DNA of 64,000 nt from Escherichia phage BEU44: the sequence record OM632670.1; one strand, 5' to 3'. Below, in pieces: positions 4,261-64,000 of this stretch. Position 1 is the first letter of the stretch. Every line of letters starts with the position of its first letter. Under the pieces are notes generated by a model. That model was given only the letters and a program-made list of their open reading frames with translations, did no database searches and was not told where the DNA came from. Position numbers and translations under genes: made by a program.

Positions 4261-5016
4261 TTAAGCACCGGTAGAGTAATACTCTGCCAGATGGTCGAGA
4301 AGTTTTTGGGCGTCATTGTCCATATAAGTCTCTTGCTTACTGAACATACCCATAGGAGAACGGATACGTTTACCTACTGTTTTCTTAGTAGGTCGAGTCT
4401 GGAATACGTGTTTGTACCCTAACTCTTGTTCATCCTCAGTAATTTCCAACATTCCATTGGAATACTTTTCAAGTTCTTTAAGGTCGATACGTTCTGCTGA
4501 TACAACAGTAGAGAAGTATGCTTCAATACCATTGTTCTTCAGAGAACCTTTTACTGGAACGAAAGTCTTCAGTTCCATTGCACGTTCATCTACTTCGTCT
4601 TTGACGTGAGCAGTGAAAATAACTGGCTTGGCAAATTTAACTACTTTCTCCTGAAGGAGAATTTTGAAGAACTGTGCAAATTCACCCCAAGCCTTCTGAG
4701 TGTTTGCAGCAGTGAGTACATACTGAGTTTCCAGCATATCCATCATGAAAGTCAGGGAATCTACAATGATTCCGTCCACGTCATCACGATGTTCAATGCA
4801 TTGGTCAAAGTATTCCAGAATTTGGTATGGGTCAGTAATACGAACACCATTGAAGTTATTCTTAAATGGCAGACGTTTACCAGCTTCTGTATTCAGATAT
4901 ACCCAACGTTCCTGGTTACGAATGTTACGAAGTGAGGCCGATTTACCAGCAGCAGAAAATCCTACAATCAGGATTAGCTGGTCATTCATTTCGCCATGTT
5001 CAAATTCTTCTGACAT
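4261..5016 (-). CDS. P-loop NTPase, possibly RecA-like (AAA_24/Sak4-like)
   Basis: 251 aa; Walker A GFSAAGKS near N-terminus followed by LNTEAGK. Confidence 0.45.
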   Translation of the reverse strand: MSEEFEHGEMNDQLILIVGFSAAGKSASLRNIRNQERWVYLNTEAGKRLPFKNNFNGVRITDPYQILEYFDQCIEHRDDVDGIIVDSLTFMMDMLETQYVLTAANTQKAWGEFAQFFKILLQEKVVKFAKPVIFTAHVKDEVDERAMELKTFVPVKGSLKNNGIEAYFSTVVSAERIDLKELEKYSNGMLEITEDEQELGYKHVFQTRPTKKTVGKRIRSPMGMFSKQETYMDNDAQKLLDHLAEYYSTGA

Positions 5017-31542: not shown

Positions 31543-31603
31543 TACTTTTTAGTATCCCTTCGTCGAAAAGGGTCAAAATCTCTACTTTAGTATTTAGATA
31601 GTT

Positions 31604-31635
31604 AAAATTAAAAAGGACTACCCGAAGGTAGTCCT
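31604..31635 (-). terminator. intrinsic terminator
   Basis: 9-bp stem aggactacc/ggtagtcct (31614-31622, 31627-31635), CGAA loop, preceded on plus by aaaattaaaa; 8 nt after stop at 31643. Confidence 0.6.
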
Positions 31636-31642
31636 ATAGAGA

Positions 31643-32029
31643 TTAGAAAGTCAGTTTACGAGCATATTTATTCTCACTTGCTGAGATAGCAGGAGCTTCT
31701 TCTTTAACTCGACGAAGTTGAACTTGCAGTGAGATAACTCCTTCCTGACCTGGTTCCAGAGTCTTAGCAAATTCCATCAGTTGGTCTAACAAATCGTTCT
31801 GTGCACAACGCATTGCACGGAAGTCTTCGTTAGAGGAATTGGTTGGCAGATGCTCCTGAGTATCCAGTGGAATACCAGTAGGCAGAGAGATGAAACGTTC
31901 ATCTTCAGTGCCTTCATTAGCTACATAGCCAACGTTAATCCAGAACTGAGCTTTCGGGCGAGAACCATTGTTGGATTCAGTTTTAGTAGAAGCCTGACCA
32001 AAGGTTTTAGCAAAAGTAGTGATAGCCAT
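31643..32029 (-). CDS. early protein (128 aa), second gene from inferred left end
   Basis: ATG at 32027-32029 with GGAGAG SD; longest ORF starts TTG at 32140 inside the promoter hairpin. Confidence 0.45.
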
Positions 32030-32136
32030 TTTGTACTCTCCAGATAGTTGATTTTGATTAGTTGAGACTACTTTGTCGGTAAGTAATCCCAGACAAAAGG
32101 TTAAGATTTCATACAGGATTGGATGCATTACTTCAT

Positions 32137-32157
32137 CCAAAAGAAGCGGAGCTTCTT
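32137..32157 (-). promoter_or_regulatory. hairpin promoter of N4 virion-RNAP type (P2-like)
   Basis: catccaaaagaagcggagcttctt: 7-bp stem aagaagc/gcttctt (32141-32147, 32151-32157), loop gga; matches the N4 P2 promoter sequence as I recall it; predicted +1 near 32138 for leftward transcription. Confidence 0.65.
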
Positions 32158-32197
32158 ATCTTTAAAGTAGATAGTTATTGAACTATCGGTTCTATGT

Positions 32198-32221
32198 AAA
32201 AGGAGACTCCGAGGAGCCTCC
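32198..32221 (-). terminator. putative intrinsic terminator
   Basis: Minus transcript ggaggcuccucggagucucc followed by uuuu (plus A-run 32198-32201); lies between gene ending 32234 and promoter at 32137. Confidence 0.45.
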
Positions 32222-32233
32222 ATTTGTTTGTTA

Positions 32234-32560
32234 TTATTTAGAGTCTGCTAAGATTTTGCTAAGACGGTCATAGGCATTAGAGAACAATTCTTTGTTTTGT
32301 TCATCTTTGCAGAAGTCTAAGATTTGTTTCTGACGAATAGCTTCTTGCATTGCAGTTTCTTCAATAAGTTTATTGGTAAACTCATGCATTTCTAATTTGT
32401 CACGAATGATTTGTTTATCTGCTTGTTTAGTTACATAACGATTAAGCATACCTACTGCTTTAGTAGCAGTACCGAATGTATCAGCTACAGTAGTTGCTGC
32501 TTCATTAACAGTACCCAACAGAGTTCCTACAGTCATACGAACGTTAGCCTGAGTAGTCAT
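32234..32560 (-). CDS. early protein (108 aa), first gene from inferred left end
   Basis: ATG at 32558-32560 with GGAGG SD; longest ORF starts TTG at 32623 inside the promoter hairpin. Confidence 0.45.
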   Translation of the reverse strand: MTTQANVRMTVGTLLGTVNEAATTVADTFGTATKAVGMLNRYVTKQADKQIIRDKLEMHEFTNKLIEETAMQEAIRQKQILDFCKDEQNKELFSNAYDRLSKILADSK

Positions 32561-32605
32561 AGTATTAGCCTCCAATAGTTGATTGATAAGATACGGACAA
32601 CATGT

Positions 32606-32624
32606 CCATAAGTTGCGAAGCAAC
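32606..32624 (-). promoter_or_regulatory. hairpin promoter of N4 virion-RNAP type (P1-like)
   Basis: ccataag + stem gttgc/gcaac (32612-32616, 32620-32624) with loop gaa; same spacing and CCA..AAG element as the other two; 47 nt upstream of ATG at 32560. Confidence 0.55.
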
Positions 32625-32673
32625 GTGTAACGTGTACAAGGTGGGGTAGGCTAAGGCTACACTAGTAAAGACC

Positions 32674-32681
32674 GGGGGGGG
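32674..32681. repeat. G8 homopolymer tract in ORF-free G-rich region
   Basis: accgggggggg at 32671-32681 within otherwise AT-rich genome; near acgtgta and aggcta tandem duplications. Confidence 0.5.
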
Positions 32682-32927
32682 TGCTTATGGTGTAAGGGGT
32701 GTAGCCCCACCAAATACTAAACTCACAAGTAACTATGACTATTTTCACTAAGAAAAAAATTATAGGGTATCTATCTAATAGACTTCCTATTTATCTCTTA
32801 TAAATACTAACAACTTCATACAACTTACCTTCTATAAGAATAGGATGACCTACTTCTATGAAGGCCAGGCTATCTATCATCACTGGTTCGGATAAACCTT
32901 TAACTGTTATATACCACATAGCTTTCC

Positions 32928-49795: not shown

Positions 49796-51001
49796 ATGTT
49801 GAACTATAACGCTCCTACTGACGGTCAGAAATCTAGTATTGATGGTGCTAACTCTGACCAGATGCAAACCTTCTTCTGGCTGAAGAAAGCAATCATCACT
49901 GCCCGTAAAGAGCAGTACTTCATGCCACTGGCCTCTGTAACTAACATGCCGAAGCATTACGGTAAGACCATCAAGGTATATGAATATGTTCCTCTGCTGG
50001 ATGACCGTAACATCAATGACCAGGGTATTGATGCAAGTGGTGCTACCATCGTTAACGGTAACCTGTATGGTTCCAGCAAAGACATCGGTAACATTACTTC
50101 CAAATTGCCTCTACTGACTGAAAACGGCGGTCGAGTTAACCGTGTTGGTTTTACTCGTATTGCTCGTGAAGGTTCTATTCACAAGTTTGGCTTCTTCTAT
50201 GAGTTCACTCAGGAATCTATTGATTTCGATTCTGACGATGGCCTGATGGAACACCTGTCCCGTGAACTGATGAATGGTGCTACTCAGATTACTGAAGCTG
50301 TACTGCAAAAAGACTTGCTGGCTGCTGCTGGTACTGTTCTGTATGCTGGTGCTGCTACTTCTGATGCCACCATCACTGGTGAAGGTTCTACTCCGTCTAT
50401 CGTTTCTTATAAGAACCTGATGCGTCTTGACCAGATTCTGACAGAGAACCGTACTCCTACTCAGACTACCATCATCACTGGTTCCCGTATGATTGATACT
50501 AAAGTCATCGGTGCTACTCGTGTTATGTATGTAGGTTCTGAACTGGTTCCAGAACTGAAAGCAATGAGAGACTTGTTCGGTAATAAAGCCTTTATCGAAA
50601 CTCAGCACTATGCTGATGCAGGTACTATCATGAATGGTGAAGTCGGTTCTATTGATAAGTTCCGTATCATTCAGGTTCCGGAGATGCTGCACTGGGCAGG
50701 TGCTGGTGCACAGGCTACTGGAGCTAACCCTGGTTACCGTACCTCTATGGTATCTGGTCAGGAGCACTATGACGTTTACCCAATGCTGGTAGTAGGTGAT
50801 GATTCCTTTACCTCTATTGGCTTCCAGACTGATGGTAAGTCACTTAAATTTACCGTTATGACTAAGATGCCTGGTAAAGAAACTGCTGACCGTAATGACC
50901 CATATGGTGAAACTGGTTTCTCCAGCATCAAATGGTACTACGGTATTCTGGTTAAACGTCCAGAACGTCTGGCTCTTATTAAAACTGTAGCTCCGCTGTA
51001 A
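49796..51001 (+). CDS. major capsid protein
   Basis: 401 aa; position after portal/scaffold-like genes; followed by strong hairpin; ATG 49796 with AGGAA SD. Confidence 0.5.
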
Positions 51002-57841: not shown

Positions 57842-60800
57842 ATGTCAGTATTTGATAGACTGGCTGGGTTCGCAGACAGCGTAACCAATGCAAAGCAAGT
57901 TGACGTCTCTACTGCAACCGCCCAGAAGAAAGCTGAACAAGGTGTCACTACTCCTCTTGTTTCTCCTGATGCTGCTTATCAAATGCAAGCTGCCCGTACT
58001 GGTAATGTTGGGGCTAATGCATTTGAACCAGGGACAGTGCAATCAGATTTCATGAATCTGACTCCAATGCAAATCATGAATAAGTATGGGGTTGAGCAAG
58101 GCTTACAACTTATCAACGCTCGTGCTGATGCAGGGAACCAGGTATTCAATGATTCAGTTACTACAAGAACTCCTGGGGAAGAACTGGGGGATATTGCTAC
58201 TGGTGTTGGTCTTGGTTTTGTTAATACCCTTGGGGGCATTGGTGCTCTTGGGGCAGGCTTACTCAACGATGACGCAGGTGCTGTTGTTGCTCAACAATTG
58301 AGTAAGTTTAATGATGCTGTCCATGCTACCCAAAGCCAAGCATTACAAGATAAACGTAAGCTCTTCGCTGCTCGTAACTTAATGAGTGAGGTAGAGAGTG
58401 AACGTCAGTATCAAACAGATAAGAAAGAAGGCACTAATGACATAGTAGCTTCCTTATCTAAATTTGGACGTGATTTTGTAGGTTCAATTGAGAATGCTGC
58501 TCAAACTGACTCTATTATTTCTGATGGGTTAGCAGAAGGGGTAGGTTCTCTATTAGGTGCTGGTCCTGTATTAAAGGGTGCATCTTTACTGGGTAAAGCA
58601 GTTGTTCCAGCAAATACTCTTCGTAGTGCTGCATTGGCTGGTGCTATTGATGCAGGTACTGGTACTCAGTCCCTGGCTCGTATTGCTTCTACTGTAGGCA
58701 GAGCTGCACCAGGTATGGTTGGTGTTGGTGTAATGGAAGCTGGTGGTGCATACCAACAAACTGCTGATGAAATTATGAAGATGAGTCTTAAAGACTTAGA
58801 GAAGTCTCCTGTTTATCAGCAACATATTAAAGATGGTATGTCTCCAGAACAGGCTCGTCGTCAGACTGCATCTGAAACTGGTCTTACTGCTGCTGCTATT
58901 CAATTACCTATTGCTGCTGCAACTGGTCCTCTGGTATCTCGTTTTGAGATGGCTCCTTTCCGTGCTGGTTCTTTAGGTGCTGTAGGTATGAACCTTGCCC
59001 GTGAAACAGTGGAAGAAGGTGTTCAGGGTGCTACAGGCCAACTGGCTCAGAATATTGCACAGCAACAAAACATTGATAAGAACCAAGACTTGCTTAAAGG
59101 TGTCGGTACACAAGCTGGTTTAGGTGCTCTTTATGGCTTTGGTTCTGCTGGTGTTGTACAGGCTCCGGCTGGTGCTGCTCGTTTAGCAGGTGCTGCAACT
59201 GCTCCTGTATTGCGTACCACAATGGCTGGTGTTAAAGCTGCTGGTAGTGTAGCAGGTAAGGTTGTTTCCCCTATTAAGAACACTTTGGTAGCTCGTGGTG
59301 AGCGGGTTATGAAGCAGAATGAAGAAGCATCTCCTGTTGCTGATGACTATGTTGCACAGGCAGCACAAGAAGCTATGGCTCAAGCACCAGAAGCAGAAGT
59401 TACTATTCGTGATGCTGTTGAAGCAACTGATGCTACTCCGGAACAGAAAGTTGCAGCACACCAGTATGTTTCTGACTTAATGAATGCTACTCGTTTTAAT
59501 CCTGAAAATTATCAGGAAGCACCAGAGCATATTCGTAATGCTGTAGCTGGTTCTACTGACCAAGTACAGGTTATTCAAAAGTTAGCAGACCTAGTTAACA
59601 CATTAGATGAATCTAATCCTCAAGCACTGATGGAAGCTGCATCTTATATGTATGATGCTGTTTCAGAGTTTGAGCAATTCATTAACCGTGACCCTGCTGC
59701 ACTGGATAGCATTCCTAAAGATTCTCCGGCTATTGAGTTACTCAATCGTTATACAAATCTGACAGCTAATATTCAGAACACACCAAAAGTAATTGGTGCA
59801 CTGAATGTTATTAATCGAATGATTAATGAATCTGCCCAGAATGGTTCTTTGGATGTGACTGAAGAATCCAGTCCACAGGAAATGCAGAACGTAGCATTAG
59901 CTGCTGAAGTAGCTCCTGAAAAGCTCAATCCAGAATCTGTAAATGTTGTTCTTAAACATGCTGCTGATGGTCGTATTAAACTGAATAATCGCCAAATTGC
60001 TGCCCTTCAGAATGCTGCTGCAATCCTGAAGGGGGCACGGGAATATGATGCAGAAGCTGCCCGTCTTGGATTACGTCCTCAAGACATTGTGAGTAAACAG
60101 ATTAAAACGGATGAGAGCAGAACTCAGGAAGGACAATACTCTGCGTTGCAACATGCGAATAGGATTCGGTCTGCGTATAACTCTGGTAATTTCGAGTTGG
60201 CCTCCGCTTACCTGAACGACTTTATGCAGTTCGCCCAGCACATGCAGAATAAGGTTGGAGCGTTGAATGAGCATCTTGTTACGGGGGATGCGGATAAGAA
60301 TAAGTCTGTCCACTACCAAGCTCTTACTGCTGACAGAGAATGGGTTCGTAGCCGTACCGGATTGGGGGTCAATCCCTATGACACTAAGTCGGTTAAATTT
60401 GCCCAGCAAGTTGCTCTTGAAGCGAAAACGGTAGCGGATATTGCTAATGCCCTCGCTTCGGCTTACCCGGAACTGAAGGTCAGTCATATAAAAGTTACTC
60501 CATTGGATTCACGTCTTAACGCTCCTGCTGCTGAGGTGGTCAAGGCATTCCGTCAAGGCAATCGAGACGTTGCTTCTTCTCAACCGAAAGCTGACTCCGT
60601 GAATCAGGTTAAAGAAACTCCTGTTACAAAACAGGAACCAGTTACATCTACTGTACAGACTAAGACTCCTGTTAGTGAATCTGTTAAAACAGAACCTACT
60701 ACTAAAGAGTCTAGCCCACAGGCTATAAAAGAACCTGTGAACCAGTCTGAAAAACAGGATGTTAACCTTACTAATGAGGACACCATCAAGCAACCTACTG

Positions 60801-63800
60801 AATCTGTTAAAGAAACTGAAACTTCTGCAAAAGAAAGCACAGTTACAGAAGAATTAAGAGAAGGTATCGATGCTGTTTACCCCTCATTGGTAGGTACTGC
60901 TGATTCTAAAGCAGAGGGTATTAAGAACTATTTCAAATTGTCCTTTACCTTACCGGAAGAACAGAAATCCCGTACTGTTGGTTCAGAAGCACCTCTAAAA
61001 GATGTAGCTCAAGCTCTGTCTTCCCGTGCTCGTTATGAACTCTTTACTGAGAAAGAAGTTGCTAATCCTGCTTTTAATGGGGAAGTTATTAAGCGATACA
61101 AAGAACTCATGGAACATGGGGAAGGTATTGCTGATATTCTTCGTTCCCGTCTGGCTAAGTTCCTTAACACTAAGGATGTTGGTAAACGTTTTGCTCAGGG
61201 TACAGAAGCCAACCGTTGGGTAGGCGGTAAGTTACTTAACATCGTTGAACAGGATGGGGATACCTTTAAGTACAATGAGCAATTGCTACAGACTGCTGTA
61301 TTAGCAGGTCTTCAGTGGAGACTTACTGCTACCAGCAATACTGCTATCAAAGATGCAAAAGATGTTGCTGCTATTACTGGTATTGACCAAGCTCTGCTGC
61401 CAGAAGGTTTAGTAGAGCAATTTGATACTGGTATGACACTCACTGAAGCAGTTAGTTCCCTGGCTCAGAAAATTGAGTCTTACTGGGGATTATCTCGTAA
61501 TCCAAATGCTCCATTGGGCTATACCAAAGGTATCCCTACAGCAATGGCTGCGGAAATTCTGGCTGCATTTGTAGAGTCTACTGATGTTGTAGAGAACATC
61601 GTGGATATGTCAGAAATTGACCCAGATAATAAGAAGACTATTGGTCTGTACACCATTACTGAACTGGATTCCTTCGACCCAATTAATAGCTTCCCTACTG
61701 CTATTGAAGAAGCTGTTTTAGTGAATCCTACAGAGAAGATGTTCTTTGGTGATGATATTCCTCCTGTAGCTAATACTCAGCTTCGTAATCCTGCTGTTCG
61801 TAATACTCCAGAACAGAAGGCTGCATTGAAAGCAGAGCAGGCTACAGAGTTCTATGTACACACTCCAATGGTTCAATTCTACGAGACGTTAGGTAAAGAC
61901 CGTATTCTCGAACTGATGGGTGCTGGTACTCTGAATAAAGAGTTACTTAATGATAATCATGCTAAATCTCTGGAAGGTAAGAACCGTTCAGTAGAGGACT
62001 CTTACAACCAACTGTTTTCCGTCATTGAGCAGGTAAGAGCACAGAGTGAAGACATCTCTACTGTGCCTATTCACTATGCATATAATATGACCCGTGTTGG
62101 TCGTATGCAGATGTTAGGTAAATACAATCCTCAATCAGCCAAACTGGTTCGTGAGGCTATCCTACCTACTAAAGCTACTTTGGATTTATCGAACCAGAAC
62201 AATGAAGACTTCTCTGCATTCCAGTTAGGTCTGGCTCAGGCATTGGACATTAAAGTCCATACTATGACTCGTGAGGTTATGTCTGACGAGTTGACTAAAT
62301 TACTGGAAGGTAATCTGAAACCAGCCATTGATATGATGGTTGAGTTTAATACCACTGGTTCCTTACCAGAAAATGCAGTTGGTGTTCTGAATACAGCATT
62401 AGGGGATAGGAAGTCATTCGTAGCATTGATGGCTCTTATGGAGTATTCCCGTTACTTAGTAGCAGAGGATAAATCTGCATTTGTAACCCCACTGTATGTA
62501 GAAGCAGATGGTGTTACTAATGGTCCAATCAATGCCATGATGCTAATGACAGGTGGCCTGTTTACCCCTGACTGGATTCGTAACATTGCCAAAGGTGGCT
62601 TGTTCATTGGTTCTCCAAATAAGACCATGAATGAGCATCGTTCTACTGCTGACAATAATGATTTATATCAAGCATCCACTAATGCTTTGATGGAATCGTT
62701 GGGTAAGTTACGTAGTAACTACGCTTCTAATATGCCTATTCAGTCCCAGATAGACAGTCTTCTTTCTCTGATGGATTTGTTCTTACCGGATATTAATCTC
62801 GGTGAGAATGGTGCTTTAGAACTTAAACGTGGTATTGCTAAGAACCCACTGACTATTACCATCTATGGTTCTGGTGCTCGTGGTATTGCAGGTAAGCTGG
62901 TTAGTTCTGTTACTGATGCCATCTATGAGCGTATGTCCGATGTGCTGAAAGCTCGTGCTAAAGACCCAAATATTTCTGCTGCTATGGCAATGTTTGGTAA
63001 GCAAGCTGCTTCAGAAGCACATGCTGAAGAACTTCTTGCTCGTTTCCTGAAAGATATGGAAACACTGACTTCTACCGTTCCTGTTAAACGTAAAGGTGTA
63101 CTGGAACTACAATCCACAGGTGCAGGAGCCAAAGGGAAAATCAATCCTAAGACCTATACCATTAAGGGTGAGCAACTGAAGGCACTTCAGGAAAATATGC
63201 TGCACTTCTTTGTAGAACCACTACGTAATGGTATTACTCAGACTGTGGGTGAAAGTCTGGTGTACTCCACTGAACAATTACAGAAAGCTACTCAGATTCA
63301 ATCTGTAGTGCTGGAAGATATGTTCAAACAGCGAGTACAGGAGAAACTGACAGAGAAGGCTAAAGACCCGACATGGAAGAAAGGCGATTTCCTTACTCAG
63401 AAAGAACTGAATGATATTCAGGCTTCTCTGAATAACTTAGCTCCTATGATTGAGACTGGTTCTCAGACTTTCTACATTGCTGGCTCAGAAAATGCAGAAG
63501 TAGCAAATCAGGTATTAGCTACTAACCTTGATGACCGTATGCGTGTACCAATGAGTATCTATGCCCCAGCACAGGCTGGTGTAGCAGGTATTCCATTTAT
63601 GACTATTGGTACTGGTGACGGCATGATGATGCAAACTCTTTCCACTATGAAAGGTGCACCAAAGAATACCCTCAAAATCTTTGATGGTATGAACATTGGT
63701 TTGAATGACATCACTGATGCTAGTCGTAAGGCTAATGAAGCTGTTTACACTTCTTGGCAGGGTAACCCTATTAAGAATGTTTACGAATCATATGCTAAGT

Positions 63801-64000
63801 TCATGAAAAATGTAGATTTCAGCAAGTTGTCCCCTGAAGCATTGGAAGCAATTGGTAAATCTGCTCTGGAATATGACCAACGTGAGAATGCTACTGTAGA
63901 TGATATTGCTAATGCTGCATCTCTGATTGAACGTAACTTACGTAATATTGCACTGGGTGTAGATATTCGCCATAAGGTACTGGATAAGGTAAATCTGTCC
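57842..64000 (+). CDS. virion-encapsidated giant RNA polymerase, N-terminal 2053 codons (3' end outside window)
   Basis: ATG at 57842 with AGGAAA SD; single open frame to window end; YVEADGVTNG with Asp at codon 1556 and KIFDGMNIG with Asp at codon 1948, the positions I recall for N4 vRNAP catalytic aspartates. Confidence 0.7.
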   Translation, partial: MSVFDRLAGFADSVTNAKQVDVSTATAQKKAEQGVTTPLVSPDAAYQMQAARTGNVGANAFEPGTVQSDFMNLTPMQIMNKYGVEQGLQLINARADAGNQVFNDSVTTRTPGEELGDIATGVGLGFVNTLGGIGALGAGLLNDDAGAVVAQQLSKFNDAVHATQSQALQDKRKLFAARNLMSEVESERQYQTDKKEGTNDIVASLSKFGRDFVGSIENAAQTDSIISDGLAEGVGSLLGAGPVLKGASLLGKAVVPANTLRSAALAGAIDAGTGTQSLARIASTVGRAAPGMVGVGVMEAGGAYQQTADEIMKMSLKDLEKSPVYQQHIKDGMSPEQARRQTASETGLTAAAIQLPIAAATGPLVSRFEMAPFRAGSLGAVGMNLARETVEEGVQGATGQLAQNIAQQQNIDKNQDLLKGVGTQAGLGALYGFGSAGVVQAPAGAARLAGAATAPVLRTTMAGVKAAGSVAGKVVSPIKNTLVARGERVMKQNEEASPVADDYVAQAAQEAMAQAPEAEVTIRDAVEATDATPEQKVAAHQYVSDLMNATRFNPENYQEAPEHIRNAVAGSTDQVQVIQKLADLVNTLDESNPQALMEAASYMYDAVSEFEQFINRDPAALDSIPKDSPAIELLNRYTNLTANIQNTPKVIGALNVINRMINESAQNGSLDVTEESSPQEMQNVALAAEVAPEKLNPESVNVVLKHAADGRIKLNNRQIAALQNAAAILKGAREYDAEAARLGLRPQDIVSKQIKTDESRTQEGQYSALQHANRIRSAYNSGNFELASAYLNDFMQFAQHMQNKVGALNEHLVTGDADKNKSVHYQALTADREWVRSRTGLGVNPYDTKSVKFAQQVALEAKTVADIANALASAYPELKVSHIKVTPLDSRLNAPAAEVVKAFRQGNRDVASSQPKADSVNQVKETPVTKQEPVTSTVQTKTPVSESVKTEPTTKESSPQAIKEPVNQSEKQDVNLTNEDTIKQPTESVKETETSAKESTVTEELREGIDAVYPSLVGTADSKAEGIKNYFKLSFTLPEEQKSRTVGSEAPLKDVAQALSSRARYELFTEKEVANPAFNGEVIKRYKELMEHGEGIADILRSRLAKFLNTKDVGKRFAQGTEANRWVGGKLLNIVEQDGDTFKYNEQLLQTAVLAGLQWRLTATSNTAIKDAKDVAAITGIDQALLPEGLVEQFDTGMTLTEAVSSLAQKIESYWGLSRNPNAPLGYTKGIPTAMAAEILAAFVESTDVVENIVDMSEIDPDNKKTIGLYTITELDSFDPINSFPTAIEEAVLVNPTEKMFFGDDIPPVANTQLRNPAVRNTPEQKAALKAEQATEFYVHTPMVQFYETLGKDRILELMGAGTLNKELLNDNHAKSLEGKNRSVEDSYNQLFSVIEQVRAQSEDISTVPIHYAYNMTRVGRMQMLGKYNPQSAKLVREAILPTKATLDLSNQNNEDFSAFQLGLAQALDIKVHTMTREVMSDELTKLLEGNLKPAIDMMVEFNTTGSLPENAVGVLNTALGDRKSFVALMALMEYSRYLVAEDKSAFVTPLYVEADGVTNGPINAMMLMTGGLFTPDWIRNIAKGGLFIGSPNKTMNEHRSTADNNDLYQASTNALMESLGKLRSNYASNMPIQSQIDSLLSLMDLFLPDINLGENGALELKRGIAKNPLTITIYGSGARGIAGKLVSSVTDAIYERMSDVLKARAKDPNISAAMAMFGKQAASEAHAEELLARFLKDMETLTSTVPVKRKGVLELQSTGAGAKGKINPKTYTIKGEQLKALQENMLHFFVEPLRNGITQTVGESLVYSTEQLQKATQIQSVVLEDMFKQRVQEKLTEKAKDPTWKKGDFLTQKELNDIQASLNNLAPMIETGSQTFYIAGSENAEVANQVLATNLDDRMRVPMSIYAPAQAGVAGIPFMTIGTGDGMMMQTLSTMKGAPKNTLKIFDGMNIGLNDITDASRKANEAVYTSWQGNPIKNVYESYAKFMKNVDFSKLSPEALEAIGKSALEYDQRENATVDDIANAASLIERNLRNIALGVDIRHKVLDKVNLS

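Follow-up and report, generated by a model that had tools for sequence, protein, structure and literature searches.

The hairpin between gp1 and gp2 of Escherichia phage BEU44 very probably corresponds to the early promoter P2 of phage N4

Introduction

A short perfect inverted repeat lies between two leftward early genes of Escherichia phage BEU44. It raises the question whether this repeat is a promoter that is read as a hairpin by the virion RNA polymerase (vRNAP), as in coliphage N4, or whether it has a different function or none. The vRNAP promoters of N4 are conserved from -17 to +1, with inverted repeats on both sides of a GC-rich heptamer whose centre is at -11; their stems range from 5 to 7 bp (PMC4496689). 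For N4 the start sites were mapped to the nucleotide, the dependence on gyrase and SSB was established and the crystal structure with P2 was described (PMC4496689). Early promoter P2 was crystallised together with mini-vRNAP (PDB 3C3L/3C2P, cited in PMC4496689). Our literature search returned no modern start-site mapping of N4, and only unrelated papers matched when the P2 sequence string was searched in full text. Among the closely related GenBank records that were matched, none carried an annotation of the P2 promoter.

A preliminary description had proposed that the repeat is identical to the N4 P2 promoter, that it forms a hairpin in the template strand with the loop centre at -11 and that it directs leftward transcription of an early gene. 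Here we followed up this proposal by sequence comparison, folding and covariation analysis. The window refers to the whole stretch of BEU44 DNA that was analysed, 64,000 nucleotides in length.

Results

Origin and layout of the window

In megablast searches with window positions 31600-32700, Escherichia phages BEU5, BEU14 and BEU51 were 100% identical to the window, nine further Enquatrovirus records were approx. 99% identical, and phage N4 (EF056009, nt 13-1114) matched at 98.8% on the opposite strand. Judged by its sequence, the window is the genome of an N4-type coliphage (genus Enquatrovirus) that is reverse-complemented and circularly permuted with respect to N4. Nucleotide 1 of N4, the physical left end, corresponded to approx. 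32712 in the window, beside a G-run at 32673-32681, and gp1 was directly preceded upstream by homologues of gp72 and gp71. Since these homologues adjoin the mapped N4 left end, we concluded that the window is a circularly permuted assembly in which the terminal repeat was collapsed. No tRNA gene was detected by ARAGORN in the whole 64 kb window, which lacks only part of the vRNAP gene; three tRNA genes have been ascribed to N4 (PMC3715699), and the N4 GenBank record lists only 72 CDS features.

The repeat is flanked by two genes on the - strand:

32234-32560, - strand, gp1 CDS, 108 aa, the upstream early gene, served by P1
31643-32128, - strand, gp2 CDS in its long form, 161 aa, 18.0 kDa, as in the N4 annotation

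The product of gp2 is a single-stranded-DNA-binding cofactor of N4 RNAPII. Neither gp1 nor gp2 gave a match in Pfam, and PHROGs assigned both to families of unknown function. In the matched GenBank records the gp2 homologues were either called hypothetical or, in several cases, mislabelled as 'integrase' or 'RNA polymerase 1 subunit A', and in phage Jura the gp2 gene was flagged as a pseudogene.

Sequence and fold of the hairpin

The string quoted in the preliminary description, catccaaaagaagcggagcttctt, was found on the + strand at 32134-32157. The start that had been given for it, 32137, is position +2 and lies three bases inside the string, a trivial offset. On the + strand the context around the hairpin reads acttcatccaaaagaagcggagcttcttatc, and positions 32141-32157 (aagaagc-gga-gcttctt) form a perfect 7-bp stem with a 3-nt loop, as had been described. 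With the + strand taken as template and the loop centre 32149 set to -11, the features are as follows:

32138-32157, - strand in RNA sense (the + strand is the hairpin-forming template), P2 core from +1 to -19, leftward transcription
32141-32147, + strand, hairpin 5' arm aagaagc, -3 to -9
32148-32150, + strand, loop gga, -10G/-11G/-12A, the central G being -11
32151-32157, + strand, hairpin 3' arm gcttctt, -13 to -19

The minimum-energy fold of the single-stranded DNA was the 7-bp hairpin on both strands. When a 23-mer was folded as ssDNA, values of -5.3 kcal/mol (z = -4.0) for the + strand and -5.0 kcal/mol for the - strand were obtained. Bare perfect hairpins with a 7-bp stem and a 3-nt loop were about 3-fold enriched in the window, with 16 occurrences vs 5.1 +/- 2.0 in Markov shuffles. 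The heptamer GCGGAGC alone was not significant, with three occurrences in the window vs 1.7 expected. The 19-mer CCAAAAGAAGCGGAGCTTC, on the other hand, occurred a single time in the window when up to 3 mismatches were allowed, and in none of 100 shuffles. A hairpin of this size is therefore unremarkable by itself, but its specific sequence is far beyond chance.

Two other sites in the window resemble the element in part. A copy of GCGGAGC at 50990-50996 on the - strand has no stem. At 23519-23535, on the same strand as the P2 hairpin and in the middle-gene region, the sequence aagaaag gaa ctttctt forms a perfect hairpin of 7 bp closed by a GAA loop. It lacks -8G and the -9C:-13G pair and is thus not a vRNAP promoter by the published determinants.

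Identity to N4 and agreement with the published promoter determinants

Pairwise alignment showed that the window is identical to N4 EF056009 from -19 through +110, past the start of gp2, which bears out the identity to the N4 element that had been stated in the preliminary description. The only difference nearby was at -20 (window 32158), where the + strand, i.e. the template, carries T vs C in N4; this position lies a little beyond the block that is conserved from -17 to +1. The 56 nt around the site were 100% identical in 12 other Enquatrovirus records. As all of these have T at -20, the N4 reference carries the minority allele. In N4 numbering the site is at approx. nt 576, between gp1 (154-480) and gp2 (586-1071) of the N4 record. 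It is located in the first-injected (left) approx. 10% of the genome, and the template strand is complementary to the early genes.

The bases at the positions relevant for recognition were read from the + strand:

32137, C, +2
32138, C, +1
32139-32142, AAAA, -1 to -4
32146, G, -8
32147, C, -9
32148, G, -10
32149, G, -11
32150, A, -12
32151, G, -13

N4 vRNAP specifically recognises -11A/G, -10G, -8G and +1C, while extrusion and stability of the hairpin need a loop-closing G:C pair and a loop with 5'G and 3'A (PMC4496689). The crystal structure with P2 shows a sheared pair between -10G and -12A, stacking of -11G on W129, a contact of R119 to -11G, and reading of -9C/-10G and -8G by D901 and R904 (PMC4496689). 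K267/K268 melt two basal pairs of the 7-bp stem; in the P2_7a structure these pairs, -3:-19 and -4:-18, are melted by the intercalating beta-hairpin of the polymerase (PMC4496689). The four A's act as a ruler, and initiation takes place 8 nt downstream of -8 (PMC4496689). An independent source names GCGGAGC as a mini-hairpin to which mini-vRNAP binds, the loop being GGA or GAA (PMC13037366).

Every one of these published determinants is present at 32138-32157 (PMC4496689, PMC13037366). The GCGGAGC heptamer occupies 32146-32152 with the G-G-A loop closed by -9C:-13G, and +1C (32138) is positioned 8 nt downstream of -8G (32146), in agreement with the published spacing rule (PMC4496689). A hairpin in the template strand with its loop centre at -11, oriented for leftward transcription, was thus fully consistent with the sequence, with gp2 lying downstream of +1C. 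In N4, where the sequence is identical, vRNAP has been reported to initiate at +1 in a rifampicin-resistant manner that requires DNA gyrase and E. coli SSB (PMC4496689). On the strength of this identity, initiation in BEU44 would be expected at 32138.

The cognate virion RNA polymerase

The window also contains the larger part of the gene for the polymerase that would read the hairpin:

57842-64000, + strand, vRNAP gene gp50, 5' two-thirds, cut by the end of the window, covering residues 998-2052, which correspond to the mini-vRNAP domain

Residues 998-2052 of gp50 aligned end to end with the mini-vRNAP chains in the PDB (2PO4, 3C3L and others) with a handful of substitutions. All nine promoter-contact residues, K114, R119, W129, K267, K268, K849, K850, D901 and R904, were identical to those in 2PO4/3C3L. 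Another open reading frame, 1-2526 on the - strand, was considered as vRNAP and rejected; it has no relative among solved structures. The vRNAP is encoded by the + strand ORF from 57842.

Sister promoters P1 and P3

We scanned both strands of the window with a strict definition comprising +1C, a perfect 5-bp stem (-5 to -9 with -13 to -17), -8G, -9C and a G-R-A loop. Exactly three matches were found in the 64 kb, all with the + strand as template and all in the early region, and none in 100 shuffles. One was the hairpin described above, with +1 at 32138 between gp1 and gp2. The other two were:

32607-32624, - strand, P1, template c ataa gttgc gaa gcaac, 5-bp stem, GAA loop (-11A), +1C at 32607; scan match CATAAGTTGCGAAGCAAC, upstream of gp1
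28149-28168, - strand, P3, template c aaaa gctgc gga gcagc tt, 7-bp stem, GGA loop, +1C at 28149; scan match CAAAAGCTGCGGAGCAGC, upstream of RNAP1 (gp15)

From the physical left end and in N4 numbering, the order is P1 (approx. nt 107), P2 (approx. nt 576) and P3 (approx. nt 4564). The three elements share +1C/+2C, -8G, the -9C:-13G pair, a G-R-A loop, a stem of at least 5 bp and a single template strand. P1 differs from P2 in its 5-bp stem, its GAA loop (-11A) and its ATAA spacer, and serves gp1. P3, which serves gp15/gp16 (RNAPII), differs in the stem, having CT/AG where P2 has AA/TT, a compensatory change. The preliminary description had suggested a comparison with the published N4 promoters, and this turned out favourably. 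The P1 hairpin GTTGCGAAGCAAC is the hairpin of the P1 oligonucleotide printed in a 2025 cryo-EM preprint (PMC12633501), and the P2 site matches EF056009.

The name P2 is apt insofar as the hairpin is the second promoter from the left end. The structural features of the crystallised P2 (7-bp stem, -11G, four A's) are present in it, but fit P3 as well. The sequence at 32138-32157 is probably that of the crystallised P2_7a oligonucleotide. The label P2 rather than P3 rests on the genome order together with this presumed match, since P3 shares every determinant.

Conservation and covariation in related phages

For comparison with related phages gp2 was used as an anchor, and 23 viral contigs were compared. 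At all 14 loci in which gp2 was at least 70% identical, the template strand had a GCGGAGC hairpin upstream of a conserved internal ATG of gp2, at a distance of 102-140 nt. The stems differed among the relatives, e.g. GAAGC/GCTTC, GGCTGC/GCAGCC, AGACGC/GCGTCT and AGCTGC/GCAGCT.

For the covariation alignment, 24 distinct hairpins were taken from the window and from related phages; only sequences with 4 or more stem pairs had been collected. The heptamer and +2C were invariant in the 24 hairpins and +1C was present in 23 of them. The pairs -5:-17, -6:-16 and -7:-15 were formed in 24/24, with double-sided changes numbering 5, 9 and 13, respectively. The outer pairs -4:-18 and -3:-19 were formed in about half of the hairpins, which fits the published range of 5-7 bp. 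A covariation score of 0.488 was obtained vs 0.133 +/- 0.031 in shuffles, of which 0/500 reached this value; slid registers gave at most 0.109.

The bias introduced by preselecting for stems was addressed by counting all heptamers without selection on the stem. At least 3 further contiguous pairs flanked the heptamer in 35/41 cases on the template strand and in 1/12 on the other strand, with approx. 1.6% expected by chance. The invariant asymmetric centre together with the covarying arms indicates that a structure is being read, rather than a duplex operator.

In Klebsiella phage KP8, which belongs to a different genus, four features are annotated as 'early promoter', and all four conform to the strict definition; the putative early promoters P1-P4 of KP8 are listed in PMC6950046. 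Relatives differ in how many hairpin promoters they carry within the first few kb, KP8 having four in total. In several genomes among L002/L008 (KP8), L006, L013 and L016 an extra hairpin promoter was found between the gp1 and gp2 homologues.

Distant relatives in which gp2 is approx. 50% identical (L020/L021 and L024) have no GCGRAGC. They carry GC-rich 5-bp hairpins with other loops and a similar spacer (ccaaaa GGGCC.GTA.GGCCC and ccacaa GGCGC.GCA.GCGCC), located approx. 83 nt (L020/L021) and approx. 89 nt (L024) upstream of the gp2 homologues. These hairpins may point to a promoter specificity that has diverged in co-evolution with the phages' own vRNAP.

The start of gp2 and the extent of the transcription unit

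The preliminary description had placed the start of the downstream early gene at 32029. The leftward gene was confirmed, but 32029 as its only start did not hold, as in the N4 record the start codon of gp2 is the ATG that corresponds to 32128, 10 nt downstream of the +1 of P2. The in-frame internal ATG at 32029 is preceded by a GGAGAG Shine-Dalgarno sequence and would give a 128-aa form of 14.3 kDa.

In 14/14 related loci the gp2 frame was open from the start site to the internal ATG, compared with 0/14 for the other two frames. The 33-codon extension was kept as protein in the 14 loci, MHP(I/L)(L/I)xE(I/L)L(T/S)(F/L)(C/F)LG(L/V)(L/V)TD, and its length differed between loci by whole codons (31, 33 or 44). 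A start codon (ATG; GTG in one locus) was kept 9-12 nt after the predicted start site in the related loci, and variable sites in the extension were distributed 12/3/9 over codon positions 1/2/3. Taken at the level of sequence, gp2 probably starts at ATG 32128 and not only at 32029. Two observations speak against the long form: the 17-mer CTGGAGAGTACAAAATG, which contains the Shine-Dalgarno sequence and the internal ATG, was invariant in the 14 related loci, and the PHROG family profile for gp2 begins at the internal Met. Both starts, 32128 and 32029, may be used.

Two terminator-like hairpins flank the unit:

32198-32221, - strand, terminator-like hairpin after gp1, GGAGGCTCC TC GGAGTCTCC followed by TTTT, 60 nt upstream of the P2 start
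31604-31635, - strand, terminator-like hairpin (31635 to 31614) and T-run directly after the gp2 stop

The hairpin after gp1 reads GGAGGCTCCTCGGAGTCTCC from 32221 to 32202 on the - strand and is followed by TTTT. With an RNA folding energy of -15.1 kcal/mol (z = -4.4) it is real, as the preliminary description had it. Phage Jura has an annotated terminator at the site equivalent to the hairpin after gp2. The hairpin at 31604-31635 is likely the 3' end of the P2-gp2 transcription unit, so that P2, gp2 and this downstream hairpin would make up a compact unit of approx. 530 nt.

Discussion

The hairpin at 32141-32157 is, with high confidence, part of early promoter P2 of an N4-type coliphage, and the mechanism known from N4 is carried over to BEU44 by sequence identity. 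The element shares with N4 P2 the sequence from -19 to +110, the position between gp1 and gp2, the orientation and the polymerase contact residues. The differences are confined to C (N4) vs T (BEU44) at -20 and to the BEU44 record being circularly permuted and reverse-complemented. The P2 element is already known, and a near-identical isolate carries the hairpin unchanged.

By analogy to N4 we propose the following course of events. The left genome end would enter the cell together with the virion-packaged vRNAP (gp50), and supercoiling by the host DNA gyrase would extrude the inverted repeat 32141-32157 as a small cruciform. E. coli SSB would then melt the non-template hairpin with its TCC loop, while the unusually stable GCGGAGC mini-hairpin of the template strand would stay intact. 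This stability can be attributed to the core being a mini-hairpin (PMC13037366). The vRNAP would bind the template hairpin via -11G (W129, R119), -10G (K114) and -9C/-8G (D901, R904) and unpair the two basal pairs (K267, K268), the A4 spacer setting the distance to the start. Initiation with GTP would occur opposite the template C at 32138 and C at 32137, and transcription would proceed leftward through gp2 to the terminator at 31635-31604.

Three other explanations of the inverted repeat were weighed. It could work in the RNA, where transcripts from P1 that pass the gp1 terminator would meet it as a weak intrinsic terminator or attenuator. The site is intergenic with another terminator nearby, and the - strand, GATAAGAAGCTCCGCTTCTTTTGG, allows a 5-bp stem followed by four U's (in the sense strand GAAGC-UCC-GCUUC, then UUUUGG). 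The terminator scan, however, did not report the P2 hairpin, in which two T follow the 7-bp stem and four the 5-bp stem where at least 5 U were demanded, and a strong terminator-like hairpin is already located 60 nt upstream of the P2 start. An attenuator would also leave unexplained why the asymmetric GCGGAGC and the CC at +1/+2 are invariant, why the spacing is fixed, and why the motif recurs in front of gp1 and gp15, at places where no gene ends. We consider this function very unlikely.

A perfect intergenic inverted repeat could likewise be a palindromic operator that is bound as duplex by a dimeric phage or host regulator, with no hairpin being extruded. A duplex operator would be expected to show the opposite of the pattern found in the relatives, where the arms vary freely with complementarity kept and the asymmetric centre (G-G/A-A) is invariant. 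Moreover, probing and crystal structures demonstrated hairpin recognition for the identical N4 sequence (PMC4496689), which leaves a duplex operator with hardly any probability. That the repeat arose by chance and is functionless we regard as just as improbable, even if chance alone would supply about 5 perfect 7-bp/3-nt hairpins in 64 kb: the specific motif was absent from the shuffles, its position is conserved and its stem covaries in related phages. The chance reading was rejected as already refuted by these comparative data.

The early promoter P2 of BEU44 can be placed beside several known systems. The promoters of KP8 have the same architecture and the same GCGGAGC, and the KP8 'P3', just upstream of the gp2 homologue, is the positional equivalent of P2 (PMC6950046). 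Hairpin promoters of the same architecture with mapped start sites are also known from Pseudomonas phage LUZ7 (PMC9163698, PMC3715699). KP8 and LUZ7 differ from N4 in their stem sequences, with compensatory changes, and in number: KP8 has 4 promoters, and for LUZ7 9 early start sites are known. The distance between hairpin centre and start site is 13-14 nt in LUZ7, compared with 11 in N4. The P2 core GCGGAGC belongs to the d(GCGAAGC)/d(GCGNAGC) type of mini-hairpin DNA (PMC13037366). Mini-hairpins at phage G4-type origins function in priming, whereas the P2 core is placed inside a longer stem and read by the polymerase for transcription. The single-subunit RNAPs of the T7 type are homologous to vRNAP in fold and in recognition motifs (specificity loop, intercalating hairpin) (PMC4496689); T7 promoters are recognised as duplex from -17 to +6, P2 in contrast as a single-stranded hairpin.

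With regard to gp2, it is conceivable, and we put this forward only tentatively, that P2 firing 10 nt upstream of ATG 32128 in combination with the internal Shine-Dalgarno sequence and ATG 32029 gives rise to two gp2 isoforms. The early gp2 message would then be almost leaderless, with the RNA beginning 5'-GGAUGAAGUAAUG..., and an 18.0-kDa gp2 with a hydrophobic N-terminal extension, which might explain the membrane association of gp2, would exist next to a 14.3-kDa core form. The promoter hairpin would in that case still be the known P2.

The hairpin itself brings no new biology. The main value of the finding is a correct annotation, in which P1, P2 and P3 delimit the early transcription units of BEU44. 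In addition, the strict motif combining structure and sequence, with three matches in 64 kb and none in shuffles, is a specific detector of vRNAP promoters in the Enquatrovirinae.
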